Shown here: positions 534 through 39,916 of the stretch, one piece after another
Layout of the letters: every line of letters begins with the position of its first letter
Position numbering within the stretch: the first letter of the stretch is position 1
Origin: Seison nebaliae
Lineage: Eukaryota
Direction: 5' to 3'
Length of the DNA: 40,218 nucleotides
Assembly: GCA_023231475.1 (NCBI GenBank)
Contig: JALJEE010001544.1
Coordinates: 124,001 to 164,218 of the forward strand
Made by a program: the position numbers and the translations under genes
Notes under the pieces: generated by a model
The model's database searches: none
What the model saw: the letters and a program-made list of their open reading frames with translations, nothing else
Told to the model about the DNA's origin: nothing

Positions 534-3500
534 TTATTCGACGGGAGGAGAGGTTAGGAGTTGAACAACTGTCCGACCATTTGTGTCCATGTTAACCGGT
601 ATTGTGGACGCTAAAAATAGACGAGAAAAATTAAATTAAAAATAAACTTAATTAATTAACTTTGTAGTAAATGGTCATTTGCTTCGTTGGAATTAATATC
701 TTCAAATTCTTCTTCATTTGCAGATAATCCATCAATTCCCTCATTCTCTACTTCTTTTAATTCTTGTGGAGTTGTTTTTTGAACCATTTGATTTTCGAAT
801 AATTCGTTAAGTTTCGTAGAAGTTGAAGCGACACCCCCTAATTCTTTCGACTCATCTATAGTTTTCGTCAATTCTTCTGCTTTTATTCCTCCAGCTAATG
901 GTCTTTTTATTTCTTTTTTTATTTGCTCTTGTGCTTCTACTTGTTGTACTTGTTCTTGTTCTTGTTGTTCGTGTTCTATTTGTTCTTGTTGTTCTATTTG
1001 TTCTTGTTGTTGTTTTTGTTGATCCTTTATGTTAAATTCTTCTACTTGTTCTCTCGGTAATCTTTCAGATATCTGTTGATTTTCTGTTTCATCTATTTCT
1101 TCAACTGGTTCTTCTTCTGACGACATTTCTACATCTTCCACTGGCGATATGGATTCATCTGGTAACTTAATTTCTTCCACCTTAAATTCTTCTTCTTCTT
1201 CAATTTGATCTTGTTCGTTATCTGAATTTATTTCATTCGTATCTAATGATACAGTTTTGGAAACGGTTTCTTTTTGTGGTTGCTCAGAAATTGACACACC
1301 ATCATCATAATCTGGTATATTATTCGAATTTAAATTATTCGTATATTCTCGGAATGAATTGATTGATTGTAGATCGATGTGATCCTTATATTCTTCTTCT
1401 GACATCATTCCATGATCATTGTTATCGATTGATTCTGAATTGTCACTTGGATGCATTTCTATTTCATTTGGTTTCATCGAATCATATTGTTCATTCTCCT
1501 CCTCCATTGTGTCCATCATTTCTGTAGTTTCAGGATTTCCTTCCGGTTGTTCCATTTCGGCAGTTTCTGCTGTAATAGTTGTCGTTTTTTCCGTTTTCAG
1601 TTCTTCCTTTTTCAGTTTCTTATTCAGTTGCTTCATTTTTCTCCTCAACATCTTCTTCCATTTTCTCTTTAAATTCCTTTTATTTTTTCGAAGTTTTCGT
1701 TTATTTCTCTTCTTTGAATTGACTTTGAGAATGGGCAAAATTTTGATTTGGGGATTGGGTTCTACTATTTGAATTGGCTCAGGATTCATGGCAATTGGAA
1801 CTTTTCCATTTTCCTCCACCAATTTCCATTGCGGATGTTGTCTTGGATTCGTTAACAAATCCTCCAAATTATTCACGTTTTGCTGAACAGGTTTATAAGA
1901 AAAAGTTTCTGGATTGCTTCCCAATAATTGTTGTCGATTATCAATTTTATGATATTTTATTTCTCCCAAATTGTTCGGTATTTCATTATTGAGATCTCTT
2001 TTATATTGGATGTTATTTTGGGGAATATTTTCCAATACTCGAACACCACGTTGTGGTAGAAATTGGGGATTTGTTTCACCAATATTAGCTTTAACCACCG
2101 ATTGCGAACCAGACGGTTGGAATTCCATTGGAACGATTTTTATATTCAATTTCTTCTGTTGTTCATCAGTGAAGAATTTGAGACCGGCCGTTTTTAATTT
2201 CGGATCAACAGCTATCTCCGGTTTTGGTTCCACTTGATCCTGCACCGACGGTTTTGGAGGCAACTTTTCTTCAATTTGTTTGATTGGAATACTTCGTCTT
2301 CGAGATCCATATCTTTCCCGTCGATCATTCCATCGATAATTCTGTTGTTCTTCTTCGAAAGGTGGTGGCGATTCCTCTCGTGCCATTAATTGAGTTATCT
2401 CTAAATCTTCTTGATCCGTTTCAGATTTAGCAATTGATTTGAATGATCTTTTCTCATATTTCCCGTCTTTATCCATCATTTCGATAGTCATCGTATTTTC
2501 GAAACTGATTCCATTTCTCTTCTTTAATTCTCCTAAAAATAAATTGTTAAGAATTTTAAATAAAAAATAATTATAAATTAATTTACCGTTCGATTTATAT
2601 TTGACTGTTCCATATTCATAACTTTCCTCTTGAATGACATCTAACGATTTTAAGCATGAACCCAAATTTCCTGGTAGCCAATTTCCATCAACATCACAAA
2701 CTCGTTCTGATGGTTCATCCATAATCAATCCGTTCTTGCATTGGTATGCGATAAATGATCCACTTCTGAACACTTCACCTTTATCAATAAGAGGGAAGAA
2801 GACTCGATGTTTCCTCGTTTCATATAAGTCTCTTCGAACTGGAGGAACAGTTCTACAAACCTACGATGTCCAAAAAAGAAAATTTCAATTCTAATTTATT
2901 ATCTCAATAATTCAATAGACACTACTTTTAAAGGAGGAGAAGTTGTTTTGACGAATTCCTCCATCTTATCTGCACTTGGTATATTGACGATGACATCCGA
3001 TTTCTTCGTATTCAACCGACTGGGAACCATATCTCCTTTCGGTATTGCCACTGTTTTATTCACATCCGATTTATCATAAATTAATGATCGTTTCGATTTC
3101 TTTTTACAAACTCGATTCTTTAATTCCTCCATTTGATCGTCCGATAATAATGATTGTAATTTCAACATTACTTTCTTCACACCTTCTTTACCTTTCTCTT
3201 TCAACACATCGATCAAAAGAAACCATTAAGAAATATCAGAAAACTTTTCAATTTATCCTTCTTCGATCCACCTTCCGTCGTACTTGCTGCTGTTGTTGAA
3301 CTTCCTGTACTTTCACCATCACCATCACCACCGTCTCCTTCCGTCGTACTAGAAGTTGATGGTTCAGCTGCTCTTTGTTCCGCTTTCTTATTCTCCCCTA
3401 AAAAATAATTGTTAAAATATAAATATTTAAATAAATTGAACCTCCATCAGCTAATTTTCTCCAATACAACACCGAATGTTTACGATCACACACGTCCCAT

Positions 3501-3755
3501 GCACGATCTTTATCGAAATTATCAGTCAAAGAACACCAAACGTCATCGGCAGTTTTCTGATATGCCAATTTGTTTGCATCAAATGGAATACATTTTCTAT
3601 ATTTTTTCCCTTCGAACTTAAAAGGAAATACACAATCATCCGACGGTTTCGCTATCGACACAAAAAGTAAATGAAATTACTAAAAATTCATGAAAAAAGA
3701 AACCACATTGCAATACGGTAGGTAGTGCGAAAATTAAGAAAAATAATTTCCACAT
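534..3755 (-). CDS. Secreted protein with fibronectin type II and Sushi/CCP domains and a long charged low-complexity C-terminus (7 exons)
   Basis: Signal peptide MWKLFFLIFALPTVLQC; FN2 motif CVFPFKFEGKKYRKC...WCSLTDNFDKDRAWDVC; Sushi C...FIAYQCKNG...RVCDVDGNWLPGNLGSC. Frame-restoring introns: 3652-3703, 3398-3441, 3198-3244, 2861-2925, 2533-2586, 611-660. Stop at 534-536. Confidence 0.75.
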
Positions 3756-3795
3756 TTATATTCCACTTCGCTACTCTTCATCTAACGCTATCTCT

Positions 3796-3803
3796 CTTTT
3801 ATA
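3796..3803 (-). promoter_or_regulatory. TATA box of the FN2/Sushi gene
   Basis: TATAAAAG on the minus strand about 40 nt upstream of the ATG at 3755. Confidence 0.4.
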
Positions 3804-3981
3804 TCACCAATTCAATTGTCAATGAACTTAAGTTATTTCATAAAAATAAAATTACTTCTCTCAAATGTCATCAATTTTCTTTCAATTCTCACGTATTATG
3901 ATGAAAGTTTTTATAATTTTATGACTTTAAAGAAAAAGTAGAAAATTGTATTAATGTAAAAGAATTTATATAATAAAATCT

Positions 3982-6404: not shown

Positions 6405-6997
6405 TGTTTAAAATAAATGAATAAAAATTTCCTTTCAATTCATCATTCATTTGTACACTTTTATCGTTAGCCCAATATCGAAATTCAATGGGCAATGGAA
6501 GCTGGTCGACGAGCAGAAGCTCATTACAAAGTTCTTTTTCTATTCTACTATTTTATTTCATATCCTCTCCTCAGTTGTTAGAACGATGTGGTGGAAAGAA
6601 TTTAAATCTGACAATGTATGACGATCAAATTTATCAGAAATTTCGTGAGGATTTCCCCGATTTTCACGTCAAGAACATTGACGAGAAAGAATTAAAATCA
6701 GCTGCTGCCAAAGAAGTTTCTTTCTATTTTGTTAGAAGAAATTTTTAAATTTTCAAATTTTTAGAAATGGAGAGAGTTTTGTATGGAATTCAAGGAAATG
6801 AAAGATTATAATGTGGGGACATTGATTAGATTATCGTGTGAGAAAGATTATTCACCGGATAATTCCATCATAGGTTAATTAATCTTCTACATTTTTAGAA
6901 ATATTTTCTTCATTCTACAGTTGTCCGAATACAATTTTTAGCGATCGAAATTGCAAGAAATCGAGAAGGAATTAATCTTCCATTATTAAAAGAATAA
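6163..6997 (+). CDS. PBDC1: Polysaccharide biosynthesis domain-containing protein 1 (5 exons)
   Basis: Spliced protein AENYIND|PNIEIQWAMEA...LTMYDDQIYQKFREDF...ELKSAAAKE|KWREFC...GTLIRL...RIQFLAIEIARNREG matches PBDC1 motifs. Introns 6202-6470, 6531-6574, 6716-6764, 6874-6920. Confidence 0.92.
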
Positions 6998-8670: not shown

Positions 8671-8723
8671 ATTGGCAAATTCTTTTATCTGACTATTATC
8701 TGATTTGTCTTATAAATATAAAG
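8671..8723 (+). promoter_or_regulatory. Putative core promoter of the NR2E-like gene (inverted CCAAT plus TATA)
   Basis: ATTGG at 8671-8675 and TATAAATATAAAG at 8711-8723, about 110-160 nt upstream of the ATG at 8835. Confidence 0.4.
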
Positions 8724-8834: not shown

Positions 8835-10453
8835 ATGATTACGGAAAATTTCAATTTGAATGATATTATTCTCCAACAAAACCGTTCAAATCTCATGCAG
8901 CAATCGCGTCGTGGTAGATACAACGGAAGTCATCATGTCAAAAGTCGATCGAATAACTTACTAAAAGAAATTTCACTTTGTCTCGTTTGCGGCGATCGTG
9001 CTAGTGGCAAACATTATGGTGTGATGAGTTGTGACGGTTGTCGAGGATTCTTCAAACGTTCAGTAAGGTTAAAAGATTTTGAAGTTAAAATATATTCATA
9101 ATTAATTCTTTATTTAGACGAAGTGTTGATTATGAATGTAAAGAGAATAATCAATGTATTGTCGATGTTAGTCGTCGGAATCAATGTCAAGCGTGTCGTT
9201 ACAGGAAATGTCTCTCCGTCTCTATGAATAAAGATGGTTAATTTTTAAGAATTTTTTTTAAATTTCAAATTATTTTTTAGCTGTTCAACATGAACGTTTA
9301 CCCAAAACATCATCGAATACCACAAATTCCAATAGTAACGGTAAAAAAAAGACGAAAACGGAAATTATTAATAATGCTGATCATTATCGACAACAATTAT
9401 TGAAAGAACAATTGAAGAATACTCAGTCGTTACAACAACATTATTTGAATGGAGTTGGACATCCCATGATGTATAATTCTTTCGAAGTTAATCAACGAAT
9501 AAAAAAGTTGGGGAATGTTCCACCGCCGTCATATTCGTCGACGCCGCAAAAGAACGAACCAATGAAATCGATTGATAATCAATCGGAAATGAAGAAAGAA
9601 GATGTTTTGAAATATCTGAAGAATATCGTGCTCTTGAAAGCTTTCATTAATCAGAATCGTTCCAGCGAAGAATCGAATGGTGAAGATGATGATCAAAAAC
9701 CATCAATTTCACCATCATCCGACGAAAACTCCACGAATTCACCTCCAATCAATAATAAATCATTCAATATCGATTCTTTAGTATCGATGAAAAATAAAAA
9801 TAAAAAACGACGTCATTCATCCAACTTATCCTCATCCAGTTCCATTTCATCTACTTCGAGTGAAGAAGGATCGAAACGAATGAAAATCATCACACAATTT
9901 AATTCCAACATATCCAACGACGTCCCAAAACTTGACTCAATTGATGTAAACGGTTATTTTCCAGAATTATCTTTTTTTATTCTATAATTTTTTCTTTCAA
10001 ATTTTTAGATAGTGGAATTCAAACGGAAATTAAACGTTCGATCAATTCTCATTCATATCAGATATTTCTCCACGAAATCTTAAGTGAAATTAACGACAAC
10101 TATCAAATTCCAATTTCACCTACAGAAATTTCAATAAAAATACAGAATCTTCTACATGTCATTTATCAAACGAAATCGTCTGAATTACTTTCATCATCAA
10201 ACGAAAAAATTAATCTCCTATCACAACTCGTTCGAGAACAGAATGATCAAAATCAATTTTTGAGAAACTTATCGATCATTCTAATTATTTCCAATATTCA
10301 AATTGGTTAGTTTCTATCATTGTTATTAGAAATTTTAAATTTAATTTTCTTTCAGAAGATCAATTGAAAAAGAGAATTCTACAAGATTTGTGCGAGAAGA
10401 ATAACGGACATCTTCCCCTCTATCTTCAATCACTCTGCATTCTCCAATGTTGA
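8835..10453 (+). CDS. NR2E-family nuclear receptor, NR2E6/PNR-like DNA-binding domain, divergent C-terminus (5 exons)
   Basis: C4 zinc fingers [61 protein letters not shown] and T-box D|AVQHER. P-box CDGCRG is, as I recall, typical of NR2E6. Introns 9068-9117, 9237-9280, 9953-10008, 10306-10355. TGA at 10451-10453. Confidence 0.85.
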
Positions 10454-10540
10454 ATTTTAATTAAGAACAAAAATTTTCTATTTATTTCTCCAATTTATTT
10501 CGATATAAAACTTTATAAAAACAATAAAATTTTAATATAT

Positions 10541-14005: not shown

Positions 14006-16573
14006 ATGCCTGATTCGAAAAATGATAACGTCAGAGTTGTAGTTCGATGTCGACCGATGAATAAAATGGAATCGGAAAAACATTATCCAGAAGTTGTTTC
14101 GGTTAGTGATGATTTAAATTTGGTGAATGTTGACGATTGTTTTAAGGTGGACGAAAATAGAAATGTGATAATGGTCCAACAGAATGCTAATGGAGAATCT
14201 AATCATAAGACGTTCACTTTCGATAATACTTTCGGACCTCAATCTCAGCAATTATCAATATACAATTTGGTTGCACGACCTATCGTCGTCGATACGGTCA
14301 ATGGATATAACGGTTTATTAAAATATTATCGATAAGAACAATAACAAATATATTTATTAACAGGGACTATATTTGCTTATGGTCAAACGGGAACGGGAAA
14401 AACATTTACGATGGAAGGTGATCGTTCCAAACCGGAATTGAGAGGAATCATACCTAATTCATTCGTTCATCTGTTTAAGGAAATCGAGGCGGCTAATGAA
14501 ACTGAAAAGTTCCTTCTTCAATTTAGTTTCTCACTATTCTAACAATCTTTAAAGGTTTCTTGTGAGAGTGAGTTACTTTGAGATTTACAATGAAGAGATT
14601 CGTGATCTTTTCACAAAGAATACGAAGGCGTTAGAAATTAAAGAATCTCCAGATAAAGGAGTTTATGTGAAAGATTTGATGGAGAAAACGGCAGAACATG
14701 TGAAAGGTTTGGAGGATGTGATGCAGGAAGGAAATAAAAACCGTTAGTTTCTCATCGAATTTAAATTAGATAATCAATGAGAATAGGAAGTGTTGGACGA
14801 ACTAACATGAATGAGACTTCGTCGAGATCTCATGCGATTTTCGGAATAAAAGTCGAAAGAGGTAAATACTCGTCGGGTGAATTACAAGCGAATCGGATTG
14901 GACGATTATATCTAGTCGATTTAGCTGGTTCTGAACGTCAAACTAAAACCGGAGCTACCGGAACGAGATTGACGGAAGCGACAAAAATCAATTTGTCTCT
15001 CTCCAATTTGGGAAATGTGATTTCTGCCTTGGTTGATGGTAAATCGTCCCATATTCCATACCGAAATTCGAAATTGACAAGAATTCTACAAGATGCTCTT
15101 GGTGGCAATTCGAAAACGGTCATGGTTAGTTTATTTATTCGAAATTCTCAAAAGTCGATTTCAAATTTTAGTGTGCGAATGTGGGACCGGCAAGTTTCAA
15201 TTTAGATGAAACTATGTCAACACTTCGATATGCTCATCGTGCTAAGAGTATTCAGAATCATGCACAGATTAATGAAGATCCAAAGGACGCCTTATTGAGA
15301 AAGTATCAAGATGAAATTAAGGAATTACAGAATCAACTAGCTGGTGAGAAACCGTATTTTTTAATTTAATTATTCTAAAATTCCGTAGCGGCTGGTGGTG
15401 ATATTGGGAGTGGTGACGTCATGCAAAAATCATTTGATGATGATGATGAGAGTGATGATGGTGATGAACATGTGCACAAAGGTAAAGGAAGAAAGAAATC
15501 AAGTTAAATACATTTCGTAAATTTCAAATATTTTAGAAAAAACGATTTTTTCTAGAGAAAGCCAAACCTCTGGTGATTAAAGAAATGAAGACGGATGAAC
15601 AGAGGAAAAAGATCGAAGAGAAATTAATAGCTACTGAAAGCGACAAATCAGCCGTTGCAGTAAAATTGAGAGAGAAAGAAAAAGCTATCCAAAAAGCGAA
15701 GTTCCTTCTATTTATCAGCCATTCCCATTCATTCCAATTCATTCCGATTAAGGTCGAAGTTGGATAATAGACAAAAATTATTGTCTCAACTCTTCATTGA
15801 TGGAGGTAGGAAATTGATGAAGAAGGAGAAGGAACAAGCGAAATTGATTGAGGAGAAGAATGAACAATTGGCGAGATTTCGTGGTCGTCAAGAGAAGTTG
15901 AAAGAAGAATTGAAAAAAAAAGAAGTTTTCTTCGCATACGAAATAAATGTGAATTAATTTAAAATTTTAGGAAGAAAAAAAAACAGCAACAAAAAAATTT
16001 TCTTCAGTTCGTGAAAAAATCGAAGAGAAGAAACAACGTGCAAAAACGTTGTATAATCAATATAAAGAATTGAAAGACCAGTATGAGGATTTGAAGAAAG
16101 ACCATGATAGAGAACGCGATGATTTGAGAGATTCTTTAACGTTAACAATCTATCAATTCTATCGATTTCAACTTTAATTTCTAGACAAATTCTGAAGGAT
16201 ATCGGTCAAAAGAAATTATTAATCGATACATATATTCCGACGGAATATCAGGATAGTATAATCGAACGAAGTTCATATCATGAAGAATCAGGCGAATGGC
16301 AAATAAAGTATATCGCTTATACAGGTGCTCAATTTAATTCGAATAATTTCAAATAAAATTTAAATTATTTTTCTAGGCAAAAATTATAAAGAAGTTGAAA
16401 ATGAAACTACATCGAAGGAACAAGACGAAGGATTTCACGATTGGTCAGGATTGTATCATACGTACGTGGATTCAAATAAAAAGAATGAAGAGTTTCTCGG
16501 TGCTATTCTAGCTAAACCATCAAACGGTTCATCGAACGACTCAAATACTGAAGATTCAAATGAATATTATTAA
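14006..16573 (+). CDS. KIF3A: Kinesin-2 motor subunit KIF3A (intraflagellar transport; 12 exons)
   Basis: [11 protein letters not shown]-loop [37 protein letters not shown], neck [14 protein letters not shown]3A-type tail [12 protein letters not shown]. Introns 14102-14146, 14313-14363, 14509-14554, 14743-14786, 15125-15171, 15344-15388, 15503-15555, 15701-15752, 15925-15970, 16141-16184, 16325-16376. Confidence 0.92.
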
Positions 16574-16703
16574 CTGATGTTTGAAGAATTCATTGAATAA
16601 CTTATTTTTATAATTTTTTTTAAGTAAATAATTCATATCAATTATAAGAAAATTTTGAAAAGATTATGAAATTTCTTAAATCGATTTTATTTTTTCTTCG
16701 GAT

Positions 16704-22290: not shown

Positions 22291-22732
22291 CTCATCATCA
22301 TCATTTCAACATACCAATTCTTTGTTTACATAATATTATCGATGACGATGATGATGATGATAATTCGAAGTAATAAATTAGATAATTCCACAAATCAACT
22401 TCTCTCATTTCAAATTCATTTCAATTCGGTTTCTTTTTTCTACTAATCTCCTCCTAATCTAATTCGTCTTCACAATTTAATTCAGGTCAGAAAAATTGTT
22501 TTTCTTATTTCTCTAATTATCCAAATACTATTGTTGTTGTTAAATAATTTGAATTTTAATTCACTTTTACTCTCAAGCTAAACTTTTTATAATTTTCCAC
22601 AAATCTAATTTTACTCTTTTATTTCTTCAACTAGTTGACTTTCTTCTAATTCCACGACATTTTAATTACATTAATGATGATGTTCTTGTTGTTATTTTTG
22701 TTTTTTAAAAATAGTTCAAGATATTCTTATTG

Positions 22733-24442: not shown

Positions 24443-25176
24443 TTTATTTATTAATTATTTTCATTCGAAAGTAAAAGAACTAAAAAAAGAAAACAAGAAA
24501 ACTACTTAAATTTCATTCTAAATTTTCCTATCATTAATTCCTTATGAATACTAGTCGTCGTAAATTTGTCATATGATGAACCGTTATCAGATTATGTAAC
24601 GGAATGATAAATATTACTTTGCTTCAGAGAGAAGAGGGAATAAATAATAAACAACTATTCGATGATGCAGAAACAGAAATTACACGGAAATTTATTTATA
24701 TCAGATTCTTATTCTAACATAATTTTCCGATTCTTCTATCGTTTCGATGGGAGAAGATATTCGATTTTCTGAATGTTCAACATTTTTCAATTATTAATTA
24801 TAAAACTTTAATTAATTTATTATGTCTAGTTTATTGGGAATGATTCAGAAAGGATTAAAGGGAAGTAGTGCGTGGAAGAAACGGCTGGTTATTGTTTGCT
24901 TGTTACTTGTATTGTTTTTAGGGAGGAAAAACAATTGTAATAAAAGATGAGATTCCGAATGTAGTAAAGAAGAAGAAGGAGAAAATGAGATTAGTAATTA
25001 CGACTTTAACATATTCATAATATCTTCATTTCGTAATAAACGCATACTCATAAAAGAGTGACATTTCCTCCACGTTAGTCAGTTGGGAAACAATTAAAGT
25101 AATATTTGGTGAAATGAAAGAATGTTTCTCATATCAGTCGAGTGATGAGGATGTTTAAATCATTTTCATTCGTTTG

Positions 25177-25190
25177 GTTGTCATGGCAAC
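25177..25190. promoter_or_regulatory. RFX X-box between the USP-like gene and FoxJ1-like
   Basis: GTTGTCATGGCAAC, a near-perfect RFX palindrome, about 1.24 kb upstream of the FoxJ1-like ATG. Confidence 0.75.
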
Positions 25191-26424
25191 CATGAAGTTA
25201 TTCGGGATCTCTTCATTATCGTGAGATTGTAACTTGATCTACTTTCCATCACCGCAATAAGCAGAGAATTTCTTTAATAGAATATGAAATTTATCTTCGA
25301 TATCTCAACACAGATGACAACAAACTATTTCACACAATTCCTCTCAATATTGGAAGGATTGTTCTCCACTTGAATCGAATACGAAGAAGTGGAAAGAAAT
25401 TGAAGAACTTGAAAAGAAATCTAGTTTTTCTCCAATAAGTAGATTCTCCCATTTCTCGATATATTCCTCTCATTCAACGAAAGTCGCCGTTTTGTAGGAG
25501 AAAGAAAGCTAATGGAATTCAGCTAACGGCGAGTCGGGTCTTCCGAAAGAGAAAAGTTCTAATTTGTACCGTATTCGAATGCGCGCTATTATGTACATAA
25601 TAGCAATGTACCAATCCATTATAGAGTTGCTTGTATGTATTACATGAGAATTATTCGTTTTGTTGATCGACAACAACTTCTTTCCCTTTTAAGTCGAATT
25701 TGAGGAATAATGAAAAGATTTGTAGTTTGAAACATATAGAGAAGTTTCTTTTAGGTAACTTTGTATAACATTAATATTAGAAGTAACAAGAAGAAAGAAC
25801 AGGAATTTCTTCGAATTGCAACGAAAAACTTCTTTATAAAAATTTGTGAGAGAAGGATTTAGTCGTCAGAATGTTTTTCGTTGCATTACTTACTTCCAAT
25901 AAATGTCATTTCCCTCTTCTCTTTATCGTTATCGTCGTCGTTGTCGTCGTCGTCGTCCCAGTTCTGTTCGATTCCGGTCTCACCATACACACCATTAATT
26001 TTCTTACGATCCTCTCATTCGGAATGAGAGAATTAATACAATTTAATAATACGAGCTCGTTCTCTTCAATTTCACCCTTTTTTTCAATGAGCTCACTAAA
26101 AAACTTACTCTCAGTTCATCCAATTGAAATGTTACGTCACATTATATTGAAATGTCTTTTAGAACTTCTATGTGAGAATAATTAAGCCGGGAGGAAATGA
26201 GATGAATAGAAGAGAAGTTGAGTGAAAGAAGAAGGGGGGAGTTGATAGGTCTCAAAATAATTCTTTTATAAAAAGAAAATTGGTTTTACCTTCGAATCAT
26301 TTCCCGTTAAATCGAACTCATAACAATTTAAAATCTATATTTCAATCCAATTCCCGATTAGTAGAGAAATATTTTGTTGATTGAAGAGAAGAAATTGAGT
26401 TGTTTTGTACTATCGATTTGTTTA

Positions 26425-28367
26425 ATGGAATTTGGGAGAAGTGAATGGCATAGCAATTCAGCACCAACAAGTTTCGTGTTGAAAAAAGATCAACAGAAAG
26501 CGATTCATGGACAATTTATAAAGAACTTGTCGAAGAATGCGAACAAAGAGGAAGATAAGAAGAAATGTCATTATCATCAAACGTTTTTTTCAATTTCTCC
26601 ATTTAGTTATTGATTTCTTTTTAAAGATCGAACGGATCGAAAACCGGTTTAGATCTGATAAAGAGTCAGTTGCAATTGATAATCGAATCTGGTTTATTTA
26701 GTGACCGGACGGCATTAAATTTGACTGAAAAATGTACGAAATTGGATCGGTTATGTAACACGTTAAGTGTGAACGACAAATCGAATTTGGAATATCAGAC
26801 GACTTGTAGTCATTTGGGAGAAGCGATGGATATTTTGAAAGAATATGTCGAACAAACGAGAAATAAAGAGAGTCAGTTCGATCATATTGCTTTGGAGGAG
26901 AATAAAAAGTTTAGTGTCCTTCTGGAAAAGGTGTCGGATTCGTTGGAGAATTTATTTCAACGAATGAACATTCCCAACGACAATCAAGACAATTATACGA
27001 TATCGAATATTATGGATAACGCATTGTTGCAACCCGCTCACAATATCAGATCGACGACAACTCATCGAAATTCGAAGAATTCGTCGCAGAAAATCGAAGA
27101 TTTAATTGGATCCATCGAAAAGTTCCATTCAGACACATATCGTCTATCGAATCATAAACCAGACTTATCGATCTATTCTCTCATAACCATGTCCATGTTC
27201 CTGAGTAAAAAAGACAAGATGACGTTACATGATATTTATTCTTGGATTATGACCAATTTTGGTTATTATCATACTAAAGATAAATGGAAAGTTATTTGAA
27301 ATTTTATATTATATTAATCAATTTAAATTATATTAATTTTTTAGAATTCTGTCCGTCATAATTTGTCGATGTCGAGTGAATTCCAGAAGGTTCCTCGTCC
27401 AAAAGACGAACCAGGTAAAGGAGGTTATTGGAAATTGGACGAGAAATTCCATCTGGCATTATTAAATAAAGGTCTCGAACGTTATATCTTCCAAAGTGAA
27501 GAATATTCTTTTCTGAGAATGAAGAAAGATTTTATTGAACATTCTCTTTTGAATAATAACGAGAATAATCAGAAAGAAGTGGATTGTGATGTGTCGGTAT
27601 GTTGTGAAGAGAACAATATGGAAATAAAAAATAATGATAACAACTTACTCAATTTTCCAAGTCAGAAACGAACAGGAATGGTAAAACGATTGAAACCGAA
27701 ATCGAAATGTTTTCTTCAATATCAGAATTATTATCCGAATAATGTCGGAACGAAATCATTTTCATATTCAGAAGATTCACGTTGGGAACCGGAAGACAGT
27801 GAGAATTATATGAAATATAATTCTCAGTCTAATTGTTCACAATTCGACAATTCGTCATCATTCCAAAATCATCAATTCAATCAGACTCATTCCTCCAGTT
27901 TATTGGCACCTCCATGCTGTACATCAAATCAATTCCGGTTCCATTCGAATGATGAACATGTGGATTACAATTCCTCGACGCCGACTTGGAATTCGGAGAT
28001 GCAACCAAGAAATTATCATCAAAATGAGATGATGAATAGAAATGAAGATAATTTGATGGGAAATCAAATGACTCATTATAATCCAATTTGTCTGGAATCG
28101 CCAGTTTCCGATAATGATCGATATGTGTTTCAGGAAAATGAGGAATTGAGAGTAACTGGCCAGAGTTATCCAATCATCGAACAATCTACTTTGACACCGA
28201 ATAACAGGCAATCATACTCATCTTATGAACCATATAACAATCCAAATGATGATTTACTAATAAATGACGATTTAAATGGAAATGATCCAAATATCGCCAA
28301 TTATCAATCAGATAGTCTTCCTCCGGTCACTTGGTTCAACAGGTGTCAGAAAGAAGTTAAATTATAA
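26425..28367 (+). CDS. FoxJ1: Forkhead transcription factor, FoxJ1-like; exons 26425-26582, 26627-27290, 27345-28367
   Basis: [39 protein letters not shown]...[34 protein letters not shown]. The [15 protein letters not shown] wing is FoxJ-type. Introns of 44 and 54 nt restore the frame. Confidence 0.75.
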
Positions 28368-28372
28368 TCATT

Positions 28373-28412
28373 CCATCACGTCTGGTAATTTACCATCATG
28401 TCTGGTAATTTA
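28373..28412. repeat. 20-bp direct duplication in the FoxJ1-like 3' UTR
   Basis: CCATCACGTCTGGTAATTTA followed by CCATCATGTCTGGTAATTTA (one mismatch). Confidence 0.85.
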
Positions 28413-28583
28413 CATGTTTCCTCACGTTTGGCAGTTTACATATTCCATCAGAATTTGATGAAAAATTCTCATTTACAATTCAATGAATTTTCTATTTATT
28501 TTTACACTTTTTATATCTCTCTAACATTCTATAATAATGAAATGATCGAAAATGAATTTATTGAAATAAATTTGAAAAGTCTT

Positions 28584-29894
28584 CTAAATGTAAAGCGATT
28601 GTATTAGCTGTCCGTTTATAATGAGAAGTTCACGGTAATTGCCTTTCACCTCATCAAATATTCGATGGACGAATGGATAAAATTCCATCAATCGCGAACA
28701 TTCAATATCCGTTGAATTATGTCCTGTTTCCGTTTGATGATGATATCCATAATCAATACATCGACCGTCATTTTCAATGAGAAAGTAATTGAGGAAGATA
28801 TGTTCGTTCCTTGGCGACGGTATCCAAAGAGCACCGAATGGTCTCAATTTCAAAGGAAATACTTGATCTAAACGACTGAAATATGATTTTCGCAATTGAT
28901 GGATCCATAAAGTTTTCTGATTTATTGTCACATCACCATCTTGTGCATCCGTCTCATATAACCATAAATCTATATAAGGATATGACCAATAATATTCGGA
29001 TGAAGGTCGACTATGCATCATCCATATCTTGAAATATGTCGATCCATTCCAACTACTTTTTCTAGGAGAAATCATCAGGAAATAATTTCCAGAATAACTA
29101 ACTCAATCATCGTATAATTTAACAGAACAAAAGTATCTTCTTTCTTGTGTTGTTTATCGATAACATTATAATTTTTCATTTGATGATATGCTATGATGTT
29201 ATGACGTGTAATACATTTTATAATCTGATCCTTCTGGAAATATGGTGCCATCAAATCAATATCATCATCCCATGGAATCATATCATGATGTCTAATGGAA
29301 CCTATGATGGTTTGGAGGTAGTGATATGTTTGAAAAGAATCGAACCTAATAATGTTCCTGAAATCATGAAATATATGATATTCTGTTTGATAAACAAATT
29401 ATGTAAAGTTTGGACGAGTAACATCGCTTGGAAGTATTGGAATTTTGATAAACTTTTAGAAAATGATAAATTAATTAACGAATGACCAAATCTAACCGAC
29501 GAGGTAATATTTTACTAGATTTATGATAATTTTCATTCAAAACATATGTAGGATATAAAACGGGTAAATGTTTCGGCATTTGCGAGAAGAAGATTCCATC
29601 CAATTGATCGTTCTTCAATTTTCTTACCCAAATTGCATCGTTCTTCGGAATGTCATGAAGTATTTCATCTTTTTCTTCATTTTTCGATAAATGTTTTCTA
29701 CATTCACTTATCTCTCCCAATGATAACAGACAATCGCCAGGTTTCAGACAATTATCTTCCACATATTTCATATTCACTTTCCCATCAGAATGACATTCGC
29801 GTAGTTGATTATAACTGACATATATGAGAAAGAGAATTAGGATAAATATTTTACTTTTATAATAGAGTAAGTGTTTAACAAATGAAATTATCAT
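28584..29894 (-). CDS. LicD/fukutin-related phosphotransferase, type II membrane protein (4 exons)
   Basis: N-terminal TM IFILILFLIYVSY; YFMISGTLL|GSIRHHDMIPWDDDIDL; WSYPYIDLWLY; VFPLKLRPFGALWIPSPRN. Introns 29427-29479, 29302-29345, 29062-29102. Confidence 0.88.
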
Positions 29895-30387
29895 TCTGAA
29901 TCATAACTTGTTCAACAAATGAACAGTGGAGCTTTGATGGTTTGATATCATTCTTCCATTAACCAACTTCTTTGTAACACGTTGTACAAATCATCATAAT
30001 ATTGTTGTTTGTCACTAAAATTATCAAACGGTTTTCGAGTAATGTACAAAATTTCAAAATTTTAATAATGTACATCATTTTTGTGTGATATTTTGTTGTA
30101 GTAATCGAGTTAGGTAATTATAGTAGTTTTACTGAATAAATATAAATTTGGCAAAATTTCAATATCTTCTGGCTAATATCTTCAATTGAGTTATGTCATT
30201 GAAGTTTTTGCAAATTAATTTATAACGATAAATAAATTGTGACGAATATTTATCATTATTTTAGTGAACTATCTTAGCCATGCTCTGGTGTCTAAATTCG
30301 AACTCAAACATTATAGGAAGTAAAAGAAAAAAACTGGAAAAATATTTTTTATTCTAGATCATTGTATACTTACAGTTAGTTGAAAAT

Positions 30388-32077
30388 TTAATTTTCAATA
30401 TTGTCATTAATATTAATAAATTTCATGTTCTCTTGATTGAATGGTAAGAGCAATTTGAGGGAAAGAAAGATTGAAGATTTATTTTTCGGTCTTCCTGAAT
30501 TAGTTTCTGTTTTTTCAGGAATTGATGGTTTGCTTGTCATCGTTTTATTTTCACAAGAACTGGCGGAAAATTTAGTAATTGTGCTCTAGGTTGAAGACGT
30601 ACTAACATGATATTTATAATTTGTACTTCACTGCCACATTTTCTATCGGGAATTACGAGATCGTACATGTCGTTTGAATCAACTATTTTTTTTCCTGTTT
30701 TGTTAGATATATAATATATCAGTTGACAATTAGATGTCGAAGGAATAAAATGAATAGATCGACTGAGATGTGGATCAACATGAAAATGGTTAATTTGTGG
30801 AGAAGATCCGAAAATCATTAATATTCCCAAATTCCTCATATCATCATAAATGTTATAAACGGCCTTCCAATCAGCAGTAGGAATATCTATATCCCAGAAA
30901 CATAATTGTGCAACGAAAATGTAATTTAACTTTCTTCTACTGTCCATCGCATATCCAAAGGGAACTTCATCGACATTCTAATACTCACTATGTCACCATT
31001 AAATGTTTCCGGTTTTAATCGGTTGGTACAGAGATTAGGTCCTCCATACTTCATATTTAGGTAAGAAGAACTGAAAAGAAGAATGTGTATTCTTATATTG
31101 GATTAATTTAATGAAACTTTATTGTAATATACCAATTGTTACACCAACCGGACGTCAGATAAATTGACTGAGTAAAATTAAGAATTTCAAACTTGGAAAA
31201 TCTTATTATGCAATTGTTACATGACCAATTATTATCAATCATATCTACAAATTTAAAATAAAAATAAGTTTGAAGAAATTTGGAACAAACCTTTTTCTGA
31301 ATACTCACCAGAAGATTGGTTAATGACAGATATTTCTGATGTTTTAGATATTTCTGTTGTTTCTGATATTTCTGTTGTTTCTGACATTTCTGGTATTTCT
31401 GTTGTTTCTGATATTTCGGTTGTTTCCAGTATTTCTGGTCTTTCTGTTGTTTCTGATGTTGTCCACGTATTTAACTTTTCATTTACGTTGTCAGAAGTAT
31501 TTATCGCTATTGTAGGAAACAGAATTTCTTTTTAGAAATATATTATTTTTTTTCTTTGATATTCCTAACCTTGTACTGAGAATTTTATTTTAGAGCATTT
31601 GGATGAAATACATATCTTTCGTGGTTCTTCAATTATTTCACACTTTTCGTCACTCATATCTTTCAAATAATATTTTCCAATGAGATTTGGACCAAGTTTT
31701 ATTACTGTTTTTTGCGGATGTTCAAACATTGTTTGTTCCCACAAAAATTCATATCTTTTCAAACTAATGCGATTAAATTTCCATTCACTTAGAGGTCTAG
31801 AAAATTGTCCACCAGTGTATGTTGTCGCCTTAAAACGACTTTTCCATGTATCTCCTATGAATCTTATAAGGATTTTTTCGAAATATAATATTTTGGGATG
31901 TAATCCTTGTCCACATAATTTGGGAGTTATGTATGTTTTACCCCATTGGGTTAATCTGAAAATTTTGCACACTTTGAAATTAGCAACGAAAGTCGTTAAA
32001 AAATAACTCTATTATATAGTAATTATTTCCACATTTAATTTCACCGTTTGAAGGAATAGCAATTGAACTTTCCACAT
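30388..32077 (-). CDS. Uncharacterised probably secreted protein with a central Thr/Glu/Ser repeat linker (multi-exon)
   Basis: ATG at 32077 (MWKVQLLFLQT...). Short GT..AG introns join ORFs 31565..31972, the repeat exon, 31108..31308 and 30537..30947. Cys-containing regions flank (SETTEI)n. The 3' end is uncertain (stop at 30388 or 30537). Confidence 0.55.
31328..31460. repeat. Coding tandem repeat of 9/18-bp units (GATATTTCTGTTGTTTCT)
   Basis: Encodes SETTERPEILETTEISETTEIPEMSETTEISETTEISKTSEIS on the minus strand. Confidence 0.85.
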
Positions 32078-32853
32078 CGCTCAAAGATATAAAACTTTTT
32101 ACGAATTCATATTTATATTCTAATAATAATAATTTCTTATATATGATATAAAACGAAACTTCCTATTTCTGTAAAATCAATTTTAGTTACGGCACATGTT
32201 ACAGTAACCAATTGATAGATTAAAACTACCCGGAAATATTTACCACCGAAATCGCTAATTTTCATCTTCTTCTTTTAGTTTTAAAAAATAAAAATTTTTA
32301 TGCTCAGCGAAGAGAAATGTAAATAAAGAATTAAATTAAAATATTCTTCTCATGGTGCTATTATTAGGTCATAATTAATATGTGTAATGCTAAATGAATT
32401 CTTGTTTATTTTCATTTTCTATCTATCAAAATAATTTTCGACGATTACGTATTATAAATAAAATTTTTCGATTATCATTTTACGTTTAAATAAATTTTAG
32501 TTCAAAAATTTCACTTGTTTAATTACAAGTTCTCTCGTATGATGTATATTCGAAACTATTCGACTTATAACAAATTATTTTAGTTTATACGCAATTTTAC
32601 AAGTTATATTTTCTAAATTTTATTTTGTTAAAGTTCATGAACGGTTTGCATAACGTCAAATCAACTTCTGTTATTTAAATAGTAAAACGAAGACCTGATT
32701 GATCAAGAAATAGATTTCGACCGATTGTGAATCCCACAGAATTTGGAAGTATTTGAATGAATATAATATAGAATTGAAGAGATTGTAGAGGTGGTTTGAA
32801 TTTGAAAATTTCGCTTAGCTATACATCGTTTGGACAGATATAAACAAAAATTA

Positions 32854-35599
32854 ATGATGAATAATAATGGAAAAGAGCAGAAGAAGAGAAAGAATAAGGG
32901 AAAGAATGAGAATAAGAAGAATGAAGATCCGAAGAAGACGGAGGAGTTGAAGAAGAAAGAGGAGTTGAAGAATCGGAAAAAGAATGAATTGATCGAGAAG
33001 ATTAAGGCGGAACAGCGAGCAAAAGAGCAGAAGAAATTGGAGGAAAAGAAAGAAGATGAACGATTAAGAAAATTGGAGGATGAGCGTATAGCGAAGTTGA
33101 AAGCTCAACAAGAGGAAGAAAAGAGATTGAAAGAATTGAAACGACAGGAGAAGATTCGAATGAAACAAGAACGTATTAAAGACGGGACATGGTTATCGAA
33201 GAAACAACTCCGACAAAATACAGAGAAGTTGAAGCAATTGGGAATAACAGCTGAAGAGATGAAACAAAGAATGGATGTTGGCGAACGGAAATTGCCAACA
33301 AATCGTCGAGGAAAAAATAAAATGAAAAATAAAGAAAATGAAGAAGAAGAAAAAGAGGAAGAAATAGTTAAAGTTGAAGAAGAAGCAGAAGAAGAAGAAG
33401 AAGAAGAAGAAGAAAAAAAAGAAGATGATGTAAAAACGGCTTGGGATGAATCATCAGATGATGATGATGATGATGGAGATGATGGAAATGAGAAGGAGAA
33501 TGATGGAAATCGAATGAGAGATGAAATGGATTATTTTCAAGATATCTCATCCGACGAAGATGAACGTCATCATTTCGATGGAACTGGTGACAATTCAAAC
33601 ACTTTATACTTTGCCAATATTAAACAGAGATTGAGGAAACGTCATGAGAAATATGAAAAATTTCGTCGACCTGATCGATTGAGAGCGCCGATCGTTTGTG
33701 TTCTGGGTCATGTCGACACAGGTAAAACTCAATTATTGGATAATTTACGTGGTACGAAAGTTCAGTTAGGAGAAGCTGGTGGAATTACTCAACAAATCGG
33801 TGCGACAAATGTTCCAGCTGAAGCGATCGCTGAAAGAACTAAAAATGTTCGATCTTTCGACGAATCATCATTCCAATTACCAGGTCTATTAATCATCGAT
33901 ACACCGGGTCACGAAGCTTTTCGTAATTTACGTGCGAGAGGTGCAAATATTTGTGATTTATCCATATTAGTTGTTGATGTAATGCATGGTCTCCAACAAC
34001 AAACGGAAGAAAGTATAAAATTATTACGAAGTCAAAAAGTTCCATTTATTATCGCTTTAAATAAAATCGATCGATTAACTGAATGGGAAAGTAATCCAGA
34101 AGGTGATGTGAAAGAAACATTTGACAATCAATCGGTTTTATGTAAAAACGATTTCAATGAACGATGCAAATTAATTCAGTTACAATTCGCTGAACGTTGT
34201 GGATTGAACGTTTGTCTCTTCTGGGAAAGAAGTGAAGCTGTTGATTATTTGAGAATGATTCCAACGTCAGCTAAAACGGGTGATGGAATTCCCAATATTT
34301 TCGGGGAGTTATGTAATTTCGCTCAAATTGGAATGAGAGATAAATTGATGTGGTCGCCAGAAACCTGTGGAACGGTAATGGAAGTAAAAACGATTGATGG
34401 TTATGGAACGACAATTGATGTCTGTTTAGTTAATGGATGTCTTCATCAGAATGATACGATAGTTCTTCCGTCATTTGATGGGGCGATATCTACGAAAATT
34501 AAAGGTATATTAAAACCGGCAACGATGACAGATTCGAGAGTGAAAAATAAATGGATTCCTTATGATCGAATACATGCCGCTCAAGGAGTGAAAATTACCG
34601 CAAAGAATATTGAGAAAGTAATTGCTGGTTTACCAATGTTCGTAGCGAAACATGATGACGAAATCGAATATTATAAACGAGAACTCGATCATTCAATTCA
34701 GGAACAACTTCGAAATATTCGAGTTGACGAGAAAGGCGTTTATGTTCAAGCATCTACACTCGGTTCTCTTGAAGCGTTATTGGAATATTTGAGATCGGAA
34801 AAAGTTCCATACTGTGGAGTAAATATTGGACCAGTTCATAAATTGGACGTGAAGAAAGCATCGATCATGAAAGAACAATGTGAACAGTTCAATTAATTTC
34901 TATTAAAAAATTTAAAATTTTCTCTTTTCCAGATTTGCAGTAATTCTCGCATTTGATGTTCGTATTGATCGAGATGCAGTTGAAGAAGCAGAAAATTGTG
35001 GTATTACCATTTTCAGTGCCGATATCATTTACCATCTAACGGATTCCTTCTCAAAATATCGAGACGATTATCGAGTAAAGAAACAAAATGAATTTAGAAA
35101 TTCTGCAGTTTTTCCTTGTAAATTGGAGATTCTTCCCGAATGCATCTTCAACAAAAAATGTCCGATCGTTATTGGAGTGAAAATTCTCGATGGGTTTATC
35201 AAAATCGGAACACCAATCTCAGTTCCATCCAAACAAGTTTCATTTACAATTCAAAAATGTTTCAAATTCCTTTTTTCAGAATATTGTTCTGGGAAAAGTG
35301 GCGGGAATTCAAATTGAAGGAGCGTCACTAGATATCGGAAAGAAAGGACAGAATGTTTGTCTGAAAATCGATCCAATTGCTGGAGATGTCGCTTATATGT
35401 TCGGACGACATTTCGAAGTTACCGATATTCTGATGAGTCGAGTTGGTATTTCTTTCAAAAATTTCTTTTATTCATTTTCCATCATCAGATCACCAGAGAA
35501 TCGATAAATGTGGTGAAAGATTGGTTCCGAACTGAATTGTCAAAAGCCGATTGGATTCTCATGAAAGAATTGAAAACCATATTTAAAATTCCTTCCTAA
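32854..35599 (+). CDS. eIF5B: Eukaryotic translation initiation factor 5B (4 coding exons)
   Basis: LRAPIVCVLGHVDTGKT, GEAGGITQQIGAT, DTPGHE, NKID, GVYVQASTLGSLEALL, FGRHFE, ITRESINVVKDWFR. Introns 34887-34932, 35237-35279, 35442-35488. The start ATG is uncertain. Confidence 0.95.
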
Positions 35600-35800
35600 A
35601 ATCTCTGATTTTACAATTCCATTAGAAATAAAACATAATCGATATATTTCCTTCAAATTCCTCTAACAGGACAGGAAAAAGATTTTTTTTGCTTTTCATA
35701 CGTTGAAAGCTTTGCATTTCGAATTTTTCTTTGGAATTAAGAGAAAAATTCAATTGATAAAATTTCAATTAAATTTTCTGATTTCAAATTTGAAGCTTCT

Positions 35801-35814
35801 GTTGTCATGGTAAC
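35801..35814. promoter_or_regulatory. RFX X-box immediately upstream of LRRC9
   Basis: GTTGTCATGGTAAC, ending 23 nt before the ATG at 35838. Confidence 0.85.
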
Positions 35815-35837
35815 CTTCGGGTGAAGAATTAGATACA

Positions 35838-38800
35838 ATGCCTGAGATGATTAATGTTAAGGAGCAAGAAGAATTAGATGAAATAGTTAATCGAATTTAA
35901 TAACAATAATAAATTTGCCCAATCTTTATTATAATATAAATTTTAGTGTTCCTCTCAAGGATTTGTTAGGAAAGATGCGAAATTGGGAGGTAATTCTGAG
36001 TTGTCGCTCGAACTATTCTTCTGTAACATTAAAACTGTACGAACGATTGCTTTTAACTTCCAAAACTTGACATCTCTAAAAATCATTGGTTCCGCTATCT
36101 CCTCTCTGGAACATATCGGCAAATTGGAGAAGTTACAGGATTTGTGGTTATGTGAAAGTGAAATTGAAGTTTATAAAATTTATTTTTCTTGAAAATAATT
36201 TGTGAAAAGGATGTCAGTCATCTGAGTGAACTGGTGAATTTGAGGAAATTATATTTATATCAAAATTCCATTGAATCCATTTATTATTTGACGAATTTGG
36301 TGAATCTCGAAGTTTTATGGTTAGCCGAAAATCTCCTAACAACAACAACAGTTAACTGATTTATCAATTTCTAAAATATCAATAATTTTCCCATAGAATT
36401 TTAATCGAATGCCAAAATTGAAGGAATTGAATTTGGCAGCAAATCAAATTTCATATATCTGTTACTTCTTTTTTTCTATAATTGATTTTTTTGGAAATAT
36501 TCATTTGAAGCAAAAGAATTATGTTTGTGTAAAAATTTGAAATATTTAAATTTGGCTGGAAACAGTTTGAAATCGTTCAAAGTTTCGTTTATAGTTCATT
36601 CATTGAATAAATTTTAATTTTATTTAAAGAATACAGAATGGTTGAAATTGTTGCATAATTTGAAAGAATTATATTTCTACGACCATCAATATGGTGGCAA
36701 TCCATTAACGGAACAATCGAATTATATAATTTATGTGTTGAAATATTTTCCCAATATTCAGAAATTGGATCAATTCGACTTGAAGAATTTTGGTTTGTTG
36801 AAGAAATTGATCAGTTCGATGATTGTTAAGAAGAAGAATTTCTATGAAATGAAATCTCTCACTTTCCGTAATTTATCGTTGAGACGGATAAGTGCATTGA
36901 ATGAAATGTTGAATTTCTATCGGAATGGAACTCATCAACAAATCAAAAAATTCCATCTCTCATTATCATCATTCTGTCGAGAATATCAAGTTGATTCTTT
37001 TATTTTCTTAATTTCTAATATAATTGATGAAGAATTTGAATGAAACGAAAATGAATGAACGAGAAAATGACTCGATTTATTCGGATACAGATCTTCGATT
37101 TGACGTTCAACGAACATATGAAATGGGTAAAGGAAGATTAAATTATTGGAATGATCGATTATTGATGATTGATAAAATTAATCGACATCTCATTTCTAAA
37201 ATTCATCAGTTGGATGAATTACATCTGAATTTGTTGAAAAGTGAATATGAACATATTGGATTGATTACAATAAATGAATGTCATCACAATGAAGTGACTT
37301 TTAAAGCAGCGAACGATTTATTACAAACAAGATTTGTTATCAACGAGAAGTTTTTTGAAGAGAAAAATATTATTGGAATAAAATTGAAAAAATGTTATCA
37401 GATATCGAATTCGATGTTAAATCGAGAATTCCAATTAAACGTTTATAATTATTTGGAGAATTATCATCAATTAATTAAAGATAATAAAATGAAAGTTCAT
37501 TCAGAAATTACGAAAACTTTATTGAATTTCTTCGACACTTATAATTATAATACGAACAATGAGAAGGAGTTAAAAGAAGAAGAGAATGGAAAAATTAATC
37601 TACCGAAATTCGATTATTCTTTCTACTCATTTCGACCAAGACGAATCATCATGATTTTCATGAATTATTTCCACATTCTCCATAATCTTCTCGTGATCAC
37701 TAGAAGAGAAACGGATTTGAATCATACAAGAATTGTCAATGATGATTATTCAGATATTCGTCAATTCCTCCATCCCAATATCGATTATTCGGATATCAAT
37801 GAGAATATCAGAAAGTTTGGTAGTCTCTTTCTCAATGAAGAACGGAAACAATCCATTAATAATATCATCGAAGTTACAATGGAGAATTATCGGTTGAAAA
37901 CAATCTTAAATTTTACTGTTACCAATGATATGAATGACACAATCGGAAATCGTATACATTTACATATTTCCAATAATATTCGACATTTATTGAAACAGAA
38001 ACTAATCGGAATCCATCAGAATTCCTTCGTTTTCATTTTGGAGAATAAACATTCGACGAATCAAATAAAGAAAATTAGTTTGCTCGATCCAATCACAGCA
38101 ATCAATAATCTCTTTAATCAGAATGGCATAACGATACCATATCAATCCAATTCATCATTCAATCCACAAAAATCATCTTCGACAGATCCACCATCGAAAA
38201 ATAATTCAAATAATAATTCTTCCGGTGACAATATGAACATTCTATTGAATAAAACTCAACGAACGAATGAAGAGAAAACGAAACATTGTCGAGAGAATCT
38301 CTTCAATTTCTTCCCACCCGAAAACGCTCTCAGTTACAATCAATTAATCTTATTAGAATTATTAGATATCGTTGAAAATGGATTTGATACTAACGACGGA
38401 ATTATGAAGAATTCTTATTGCAAGTTTTTTTTTTAAATATTTCTCAATTCTAAACAAAATTCCTTTGAAAGAATCGAAGATATTCGAAGCGAAAACTTAT
38501 CCTGTTCACCCACCTACACAACTTATCGACAATTTTGTGATTATGAGAATTATTTGAAGAAATCTTATTATCGTCATTGTATCGATCTGATGGAAAAGGA
38601 GGAAGATGTTGATTGTTAAATTTTCTCTTTGAATTCTTATAATTCCAATAAATTTAGATGTTCGTACAACAAATTCATTAATGGAAAATTTCGAAATAAC
38701 TGAAAAGTTGTTGGAGAGTCGTAAAAAATATGAAGTTTCCAATGACAATGTGAATAATCGACGTGTGGACGATTCGTTTATCATAATGACGAAAACGTTC

Positions 38801-39916
38801 AATGGAAATGTAAAGTATGTTGAAGACTCGAAATCTTTGTTAATTTTCTTCACAATGATGATTATTGATTAATCCTTCATTAATTTATCGTAGAAATAAT
38901 ACGAGATGGAAATATTCAGGATTATCGACGAAATGTTCAAAAAAATATCCGGCCGAATTTTCCGTCGCTGAACTAGTAGAATCGCATTATTTCAAATCGA
39001 ATTCATTAACTCCCGAATTCATCCTACATTATTCTTTCATTTATAAAGTTCCTTCTTTTCTAATTTAATTTTTTTAAATTAATTTTCGATGACTAATTTC
39101 AATTAGGATGATTCGATGATTAAGGCGACTGAAAATATTTTATATAAATTTGTACGATCAAATATTCTTTTCGATCAGTTATCGCATCCAAAATTCATTG
39201 AGGAGAACGAACGGTTATTTAAGGAGACAGCGTTACATGAAATGGAATTGAATTATGATTTGAATCTGGTTAAAGATATGACTTCAACTGCTATGCAATT
39301 CAATCAAGTTTTTATTTATTTTAAATTTTCGAACTAAATGATGAATTGGGAATAGAAGACAAATGTGTCCACTGCTTATAGTAGCCATATGAATGATGAA
39401 CGATTGATTAGTGTGGCAGAAGACGAGAAAATAATTCCGAAAATTAAATATGGAGATAATGACGAGATTAGTGAAGATCATCGAAATATGATAATTGATC
39501 GATTATATTCTGTTACACAACTAACGTTAATGGAGAGGAATATCGATCTGTTTTCAGCTACAACATATTTGAAGAACTTGAGATTTCTCAATCTCTCACA
39601 TAACGGTCTGAGAACGTTGAAAGGATTTGCTCATCTAGTTCCATCTAACTTTTATTCCTTCTTATAAATTTATTTTTACATAGTTACATTTGGAATATTT
39701 GAATGTGGATTATAATCGGATACAAACCATCAAGGATTTCAGAGTTTGATTTCTTCTCTTAAATTTCAATTGTTGAAATTCTTTTAGGTATGTGGAGCAT
39801 TGAATGAGTTTCATGTGGCGTACAATTGTATAAATAATTTGGAAGAAACTGTCCGTCATGCTCAAAATTTTCAGCACGTGAAGGTCATTGATCTTCGTTA
39901 CAACGAATTCTATTTG
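35838..39916 (+). CDS. LRRC9: Leucine-rich repeat-containing protein 9 (cilia-associated), many short introns; probably incomplete at the 3' end
   Basis: LELFF...FQNLTSLKII...LQDLWLCESEIE|...LRKLYLYQNSI...LEVLWLAEN...LKELNLAANQI...LNLAGNSLKSFK|...LKELYFYDHQYGGNPL...NYIIYVL follows the LRRC9 N-terminus. Second LRR block LRFLNLSHNGL...LEYLNVDYNRI...IDLRYNEF. Confidence 0.8.

Follow-up and report, generated by a model that had tools for sequence, protein, structure and literature searches.

Introns that begin with GTT form a minority class in Caenorhabditis elegans, amounting to about a fifth or less. Standard metazoan 5' splice sites (donors) fall into the classes NN/GURAG and AG/GUNNN, the slash marking the exon end (PMC11732430), and of all intron features the 5' splice signal is described as following phylogeny most closely across species, with near monophyly for animal phyla (PMC3033335). 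Donors that have been rewritten are associated mostly with unicellular lineages that have few introns, and the closest described case is that of five Entamoeba species, in which 88–90% of introns begin GUUUGU, 78–83% carry a U at +7 and the U1 candidate reads AACAAAC (Roy and Bowser, bioRxiv 10.1101/2022.06.08.495308); the same preprint gives an exonic G at -1 in 19–31% in the intron sets compared. A switch of another kind, from A to U at +4, is linked to METTL16 and SNRNP27K in Saccharomycotina (PMC10581693) and mett-10 worms (PMC11347140). Here, we report that GTT opens 55 of the 61 introns placed in a stretch of 40,218 nucleotides from Seison nebaliae, a marine relative of rotifers (Seisonidea, Syndermata; assembly GCA_023231475.1, contig JALJEE010001544.1, positions 124,001 to 164,218), hereafter the window, whose own numbering is used throughout. 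Seisonids are sexual epibionts of Nebalia and have been grouped as the sister of Acanthocephala, and the S. nebaliae assembly comprises about 44 Mb with 31.9% GC (PMC8351084).

All donor counts refer to the 12 genes of this single window, nine of which were matched to S. nebaliae proteins: the kinesin exon at 14789-15124 is 100% identical to P0122 (SNEBB_003630, S. nebaliae by its NCBI name), and eight further genes match S. nebaliae proteins named SNEBB_0036xx, which are encoded on one and the same contig of 164,218 bases. Aligning the deposited proteins letter for letter onto the window yielded 47 distinct GT-AG donors in nine genes, and 14 more introns were placed by hand in three genes for which no protein was retrieved (the FN2/Sushi gene, PBDC1 and an unnamed gene). 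No intron was removed from this total of 61; a putative gene at 16700-17400, whose junctions are not firm, was left outside it. The 55 GTT donors (90%; 95% confidence interval 80–96%) are accompanied by four GTA, two GTG and no GTC. GTT predominates among the donors from deposited proteins (43/47) and those placed by hand (12/14), and on both strands (35/37 on the plus and 20/24 on the minus strand). All 61 introns have GT-AG ends and 60 measure 41-65 nucleotides (median 47), at a density of about 2.4-2.9 per kb of coding sequence. The initial annotation had put the GTT share at about 90% from 39 of 44 introns in ten genes, and the same genes give 37 of 43 here; its extension to the LRRC9-like gene and the other introns it had placed agrees with 13/13 and with 5/5 in the unnamed gene. 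The junctions that it had located in conserved motifs, GYVQ/GMNE (11273), WK/NSVRHNL (27291) and KTVM/CANVGP (15125), were recovered as described.

The GTT share exceeds every background applied. Window-wide, T follows GT with a probability of 0.44 (P = 6e-14 for the excess); at unused GTs within 40 nucleotides of donors, serving as decoys, the next letter is T in 67 of 147 (P = 5e-10), and at GTs inside introns, the harshest null, in 26 of 41 (P = 2e-6). These backgrounds bear on the idea that the splicing machinery is ordinary and that an unconstrained +3 has drifted to T in T-rich introns, or that such a level is normal for rotifers and acanthocephalans. Intron interiors do contain 48–49% T, and the 26 of 41 just given shows how often T follows GT there, but T accounts for 90% of the letters at +3 and for 52% of those from +8 to +16 (P = 1e-10). 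Composition controls were taken from a kinesin scan of metagenome contigs, in which nearly all of 80 loci lacked clear introns; two AT-rich, intron-bearing loci, L061 and L070, were used and L045 was left out. L061 is as T-rich and short in its introns as the window (28% GC, introns of 47-60 nucleotides, 48.5% T inside), yet its homology-fixed donors are five GTA and one GTT, and the donors of L070 are GTA in all four cases, the first being ambiguous between two GTA sites. The window differs from the two loci pooled with P = 6e-7, and its KIF3A gene from L061 alone with P = 0.035. Three of the six L061 introns share alignment column and phase with introns 1, 3 and 4 of Seison KIF3A (14102, 14509 and 14743), and at these three positions the donor is GTA in L061 and GTT in Seison. 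Since a tree of 25 kinesin rows places neither L061 nor Seison, L061 is a composition control from an unplaced organism, neither a clade control nor claimed as a rotifer. Tubulin class-1 introns of bdelloids share a G/GT donor (PMC3464624), a hint only, in that the source as consulted does not state +3. Base composition, which the initial annotation had itself raised as a possible source of the +3T, was checked and rejected on the intron GTs, the decoys and L061/L070, and ordinary machinery is very improbable.

The placement of the junctions was assessed in two further ways. Profiles built from 50 homologues outside Seison served to score every in-frame GT or GC candidate up to 36 nucleotides away, and for 13 of the 14 introns of KIF3A and eIF5B the deposited donor ranked first, non-GTT rivals of GTT donors trailing by at least 5 bits; the fourteenth intron was a GTG/GTA tie. 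A parser blind to +3, which sees the donor GT alone and was trained partly on these same genes, called 40 GTT among 51 donors; inside deposited genes 37 of its 39 donors agreed with the deposit, and 10 of 47 were missed. The deposited isoform pairs differ at the acceptor only, by tandem AGs at 39355/39358 and 19334/19337 and by a 21-nucleotide shift at 11418/11397 on the minus strand, and none of these three pairs has an alternative donor, which suggests that read evidence underlies the deposited models. Four sequencing runs from two studies that cover 20219-40218 show zero differing letters, which backs the DNA sequence only; the runs behaved as DNA and contained no splice joints over that interval. 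The GTT majority could still be an artefact of gene finding, given that the deposited models may carry a common trained donor bias and that no RNA junction was seen, or it could consist of copies of a single intron-generating element that spread recently. Homology alone and the parser blind to +3 speak against the former, and the three intron positions common to KIF3A and L061 against the latter, so that either origin appears exceedingly remote. A search for an introner family gave a top pairwise score of 40 among 60 introns, as compared to up to 41 in 20 shuffles, and the candidate was rejected. Because composition, misplacement and a repeated intron family all fail, and because the shared positions carry GTA elsewhere, a lineage-specific change in donor reading is well supported. 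The modified 5' splice-site reader proposed in the initial annotation holds to this extent, while the window data do not single out the component that changed. The rewritten donor code is likely lineage-wide, and very probably the genome-wide GTT share resembles that of the window.

The anatomy of the 55 GTT donors was compared with phase-matched coding and intron-interior backgrounds. Two exonic adenines are in excess (-2A 35 vs 21.2 expected, -1A 34 vs 20.2), and G at -1 is not significantly so (14 vs 10.8, P = 0.18). Downstream of the GTT, A at +4 occurs 22 times (19.1 expected) and T 19 times (26.2); T is depleted at +5 (11 vs 26.2), G is threefold enriched there (11 vs 3.3), and G at +6 is at background (3 vs 3.3). 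A further clear intronic signal is a T at +7 (42 vs 26.2; P = 1.4e-4 against the local 52% T), and real GTT donors are distinguished from decoy GTT sites by -1A (P = 0.003) and +7T (P = 7e-7), so that the donor motif of the window may be written AA/GTTnnnT. The initial annotation had described +4 to +6 as nearly free, which agrees with their low information of 0.26, 0.06 and 0.31 bits, but it passed over the enrichment of +5G and the signal at +7. GTTTGT is found in one of the 61 donors, and AAG at +4 to +6 in none of the 55. A purine at +3 occurs in 6 of 61, and the standard metazoan rule of a purine at +3, a G at -1 or both in most donors is thus not followed. Four of the six non-GTT donors follow an exonic G (coupling P = 0.057, or 0.025 without a doubtful ankyrin intron); the proportion claimed previously, four of five, is regained, with 38 of 43 GTT in the ten genes, if an alternative ankyrin donor at 6237 replaces that at 5897. 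The 3' signal is likewise loose, with TAG at 35, AAG at 14 and CAG at 12 of the 61 acceptors. Among six branch-point motifs tried in the 60 short introns, TRAY, TAA, CTAA, TTAA and CTRAY showed no enrichment and WWAAT gave P = 0.026. The narrow length range of the introns is compatible with intron definition.

We favour, with a probability of about 45%, an explanation in which the 5' end of U1 has been altered so as to place an A opposite +3, and perhaps +7, in a manner similar to that of Entamoeba. Pairing was calculated with the standard U1 5' end of PMC9311317, pseudouridine being treated as U. In the canonical register the best helix averaged -1.2 kcal/mol for the 55 GTT donors and -1.1 kcal/mol for 147 decoys (area under the curve, AUC, 0.47), and the four exceptions with G at -1 reached -5.5 to -8.5 kcal/mol. 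The GTT donors thus fit standard U1 no better than decoys do, and the main class is therefore likely read otherwise. If U1 position 6 is set to A, the GTT donors improve to -2.4 against -1.05 kcal/mol for decoys (AUC 0.64), a gain that is partly by construction. An altered U1 would form three stacked Watson-Crick pairs with +1 to +3, a core that would make the exonic G at -1 dispensable, and GTA or GTG donors, deprived of the +3 pair, would depend on G at -1 and the bases next to it, and this would account for the G that precedes the exceptions. Loop 1 of U5, which is rich in U, might pair with the exonic adenines; the weak constraint on +4 to +6 would correspond to a weak helix with the ACAGA box of U6, where +3U could wobble with G44, and the narrow length of 41-65 nucleotides would supply the missing information through intron definition. 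Several observations weigh against an altered U1. The A6 model separates real from decoy GTT sites weakly (AUC 0.57, P = 0.09). Entamoeba also fixes +4U, +5G and +6U, positions that are nearly free in Seison, and a core of three pairs is a weak helix. Across 240 fungal genomes the regions of U1 and U6 that pair with the donor stayed invariant where +4 had shifted (PMC10581693), and Thecamonas and Micromonas keep a standard U1 (bioRxiv 10.1101/2022.06.08.495308). No U1 sequence was seen, Rfam families matching nothing within the window, and the evidence comes from one window with 12 genes.

U1 might instead be standard and its pairing of little weight, introns being defined by length and proteins while U5 loop 1, through the exonic AA, and U6 fix the cleavage site; +3U would then have been picked because it can form a wobble pair with G44 of U6, and the loss of METTL16, the U6 N6-methyladenosine (m6A) methylase, may have come first. 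Position +3 is reported to face U6 G44 and to interact with it only weakly if it is a purine (PMC11732430), and worms without METT-10 move to donors strong for U5, two cited examples of which are GUU sites (PMC11347140). In the BUSCO supplement of PMC12256650, METTL16 is scored "Missing" solely in Seison among 25 syndermatans, U5-40K in two of 25 (Seison and one bdelloid) and SPF45 in one of 25. The excess of exonic A at -2 and -1 and the uniform length of 60 of the 61 introns also fit a reading by U5 and length. Of the proteins that the initial annotation had proposed to inspect for loss or divergence, METTL16 is thus scored missing, but SNRNP27K and Prp8 are complete in Seison in the same table, and searches of it returned neither U1C nor LUC7. 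The signature of METTL16 loss is, however, +4U (PMC10581693), and T in Seison is below expectation at both +4 and +5. BUSCO absence is weak evidence on the long branch of Seison: of 526 genes recovered in Neoechinorhynchus, 76 (14%) count as missing from Seison, as does LSm2, a core U6 protein (PMC12256650 supplement). The +7T is left unexplained, and on balance we regard this reading as rather unlikely. SPF45/RBM17 and LSm2 are, like METTL16, scored missing solely in Seison in that supplement, and a wider reduction or divergence of the spliceosome in Seison may be considered. Less probable again is a standard U1 that pairs one base off, in the +1 shifted register of the kind known from rare donors in humans, as the reading of the main class. 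In this layout -1A pairs with U10, +1G with C9, +3U with A7 and +7U with A3, and the key pair is +6G with C4. The enriched -1A, +3T and +7T are the very positions expected from the shift, flanking pairs in the shifted register number 3.44 against a null of 2.90 (z 3.2, compared to z 2.4 for the canonical register), the exceptions resemble canonical CAG/GTR, and shifted U1 registers are documented (PMC9311317, PMC6280755). Nonetheless, the key +6G is at its background level, and the AAG at +4 to +6 is absent from all 55 donors. In the shifted register the best helix has a mean of -0.18 kcal/mol, which is decoy-like (AUC 0.51), the shifted register surpasses the canonical in 7 of 55 donors and the canonical surpasses the shifted in 17, and the canonical +5G is the one that is enriched.

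When set beside the described systems, the window resembles Entamoeba in its +3U of about 90%, its preference for +7U, its low exonic -1G (14/55, near the 19–31% of the preprint) and its short, AT-rich introns. It differs in that Seison is an intron-rich animal with +4 to +6 nearly free, where Entamoeba has a fixed UGU, and in that the U1 of Seison is unseen. The A/GTT start with T at +7 is shared with human donors of the +1 shifted register, which Roca and Krainer reportedly described in 2009 at atypical human 5' splice sites; those are a small subset of weak sites, whereas the window shows 90% GTT, without AAG at +4 to +6 and without energetic support. As in the switch linked to METTL16 and SNRNP27K (PMC10581693, PMC11347140), METTL16 is scored missing, SNRNP27K is kept and the exonic signal faces U5, but the change in Seison is at +3 with no excess of +4U, and the exonic letters are AA rather than AG. 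Standard metazoan donors have in common with the window the GT-AG ends and the minor CAG/GTR class fitting standard U1, and are unlike its majority in that most Seison donors have T at +3, with -1A in 34 and +5G in 11 of the 55.

No report of GTT-majority donors in Seison or in any animal was found in the searched literature, whose coverage excluded most subscription papers, and within that literature a rewritten donor code of this kind is in print for amoebae only. The words "donor" and "snRNA" are absent from the main text of the genome paper PMC8351084, and "intron" and "splic" from its two supplements. New here are the exonic AA and the T at +7 of GTT donors, the lack of a -1G excess, the exceptions after G and the poor fit to standard U1. 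It is conceivable, though the odds are somewhat short of even, that Seison is the first animal known in which the 5' splice code has been rewritten genome-wide: thousands of inherited introns would have passed from GTR to A/GTT..T in concert with a change at the 5' end of U1, the altered U1 being either the only form or accompanied by a standard one, as a convergence with Entamoeba in an intron-rich genome without massive intron loss. If true, two models, selective intron loss and co-evolution with the machinery, could be told apart in an intron-rich animal whose introns are 90% GTT, because inherited positions have been rewritten in place, as seen at the three positions shared with L061. In practical terms, a gene finder whose donor model has learned GTRAG will place exons wrongly in the Seison lineage.

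The genes and their donors are collected in Table 1. The labels NR2E, TBC1D13, FoxJ1 and LRRC9 come from the initial annotation or from resemblance, and Pfam confirms domains only; for the nuclear receptor at 8835-10453 the Pfam ligand-binding domain was not matched at E 0.01.

Table 1. Intron-bearing genes of the window with their donor positions (strand in brackets after the span; a slash marks the exon end)
Gene	Span	GTT/introns	GTT donors	Exceptions	Remarks
FN2/Sushi gene	534..3755 (-)	4/6	3703, 3441, 3244, 660	AAA/GTA 2925; ACG/GTA 2586	placed by hand
Ankyrin gene P0246	3982..5908 (-)	1/2	5552	GTA 5897 (doubtful)	
PBDC1	6495..6997 (+)	3/3	6531, 6716, 6874		placed by hand
Nuclear receptor P0248	8835..10453 (+)	4/4	9068, 9237, 9953, 10306		zf-C4 domain; labelled NR2E in the initial annotation
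RabGAP-TBC gene P0249/P0252	10541..12541 (-)	7/8		CAG/GTA 12243	intron at 11652 of 235 nucleotides with two acceptors
KIF3A kinesin P0122	14006..16573 (+)	9/11		CTG/GTG 15344; CAG/GTG 16325	
MADF gene P0247/P0251	18567..19565 (+)	1/1	19290		tandem acceptors
Forkhead gene P0242	26425..28367 (+)	2/2	26583, 27291		labelled FoxJ1 in the initial annotation
LicD-family gene P0250	28584..29771 (-)	3/3	29496, 29345, 29102		
Unnamed gene, 426 amino acids	30537..32077 (-)	5/5	32068, 31569, 31290, 31117, 30930		placed by hand without homologue check; least firm set
eIF5B P0243	32857..35599 (+)	3/3	34887, 35237, 35442		
LRRC9-like leucine-rich-repeat gene P0241/P0244	35838..39925 (+)	13/13			tandem acceptors 39355/39358

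Some gene models deserve comment. The ankyrin gene has an alternative first exon at 6404-6238 (minus strand) of 55 codons, in frame and with the donor GTTAGT at 6237, which reaches the first acceptor (5833) via a 405-nucleotide intron and would stand head to head with PBDC1 at a distance of about 90 nucleotides; the deposited first exon of four codons may be wrong. The LRRC9-like model ends at 39911-39925 with a stop right after GTTAGT, 130 nucleotides upstream of the next gene, and a final intron may have escaped annotation, or the gene may be truncated. Another small gene likely lies at 16700-17400 on the minus strand, and near 16967 it has what is plausibly a GTT intron. Two long intronless open reading frames of 569 and 711 amino acids, at 22733-24442 and 20155-22290 (both minus strand), stand amid this intron-rich region; neither has a Pfam match at E 0.01, and one stretch of the former resembles the Cys box of a ubiquitin protease. 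At 40054-40218 the window holds the start of a cathepsin-type preproprotein with an I29 domain, and this gene is probably multicopy because contigs there are 3-5x deeper than the rest.

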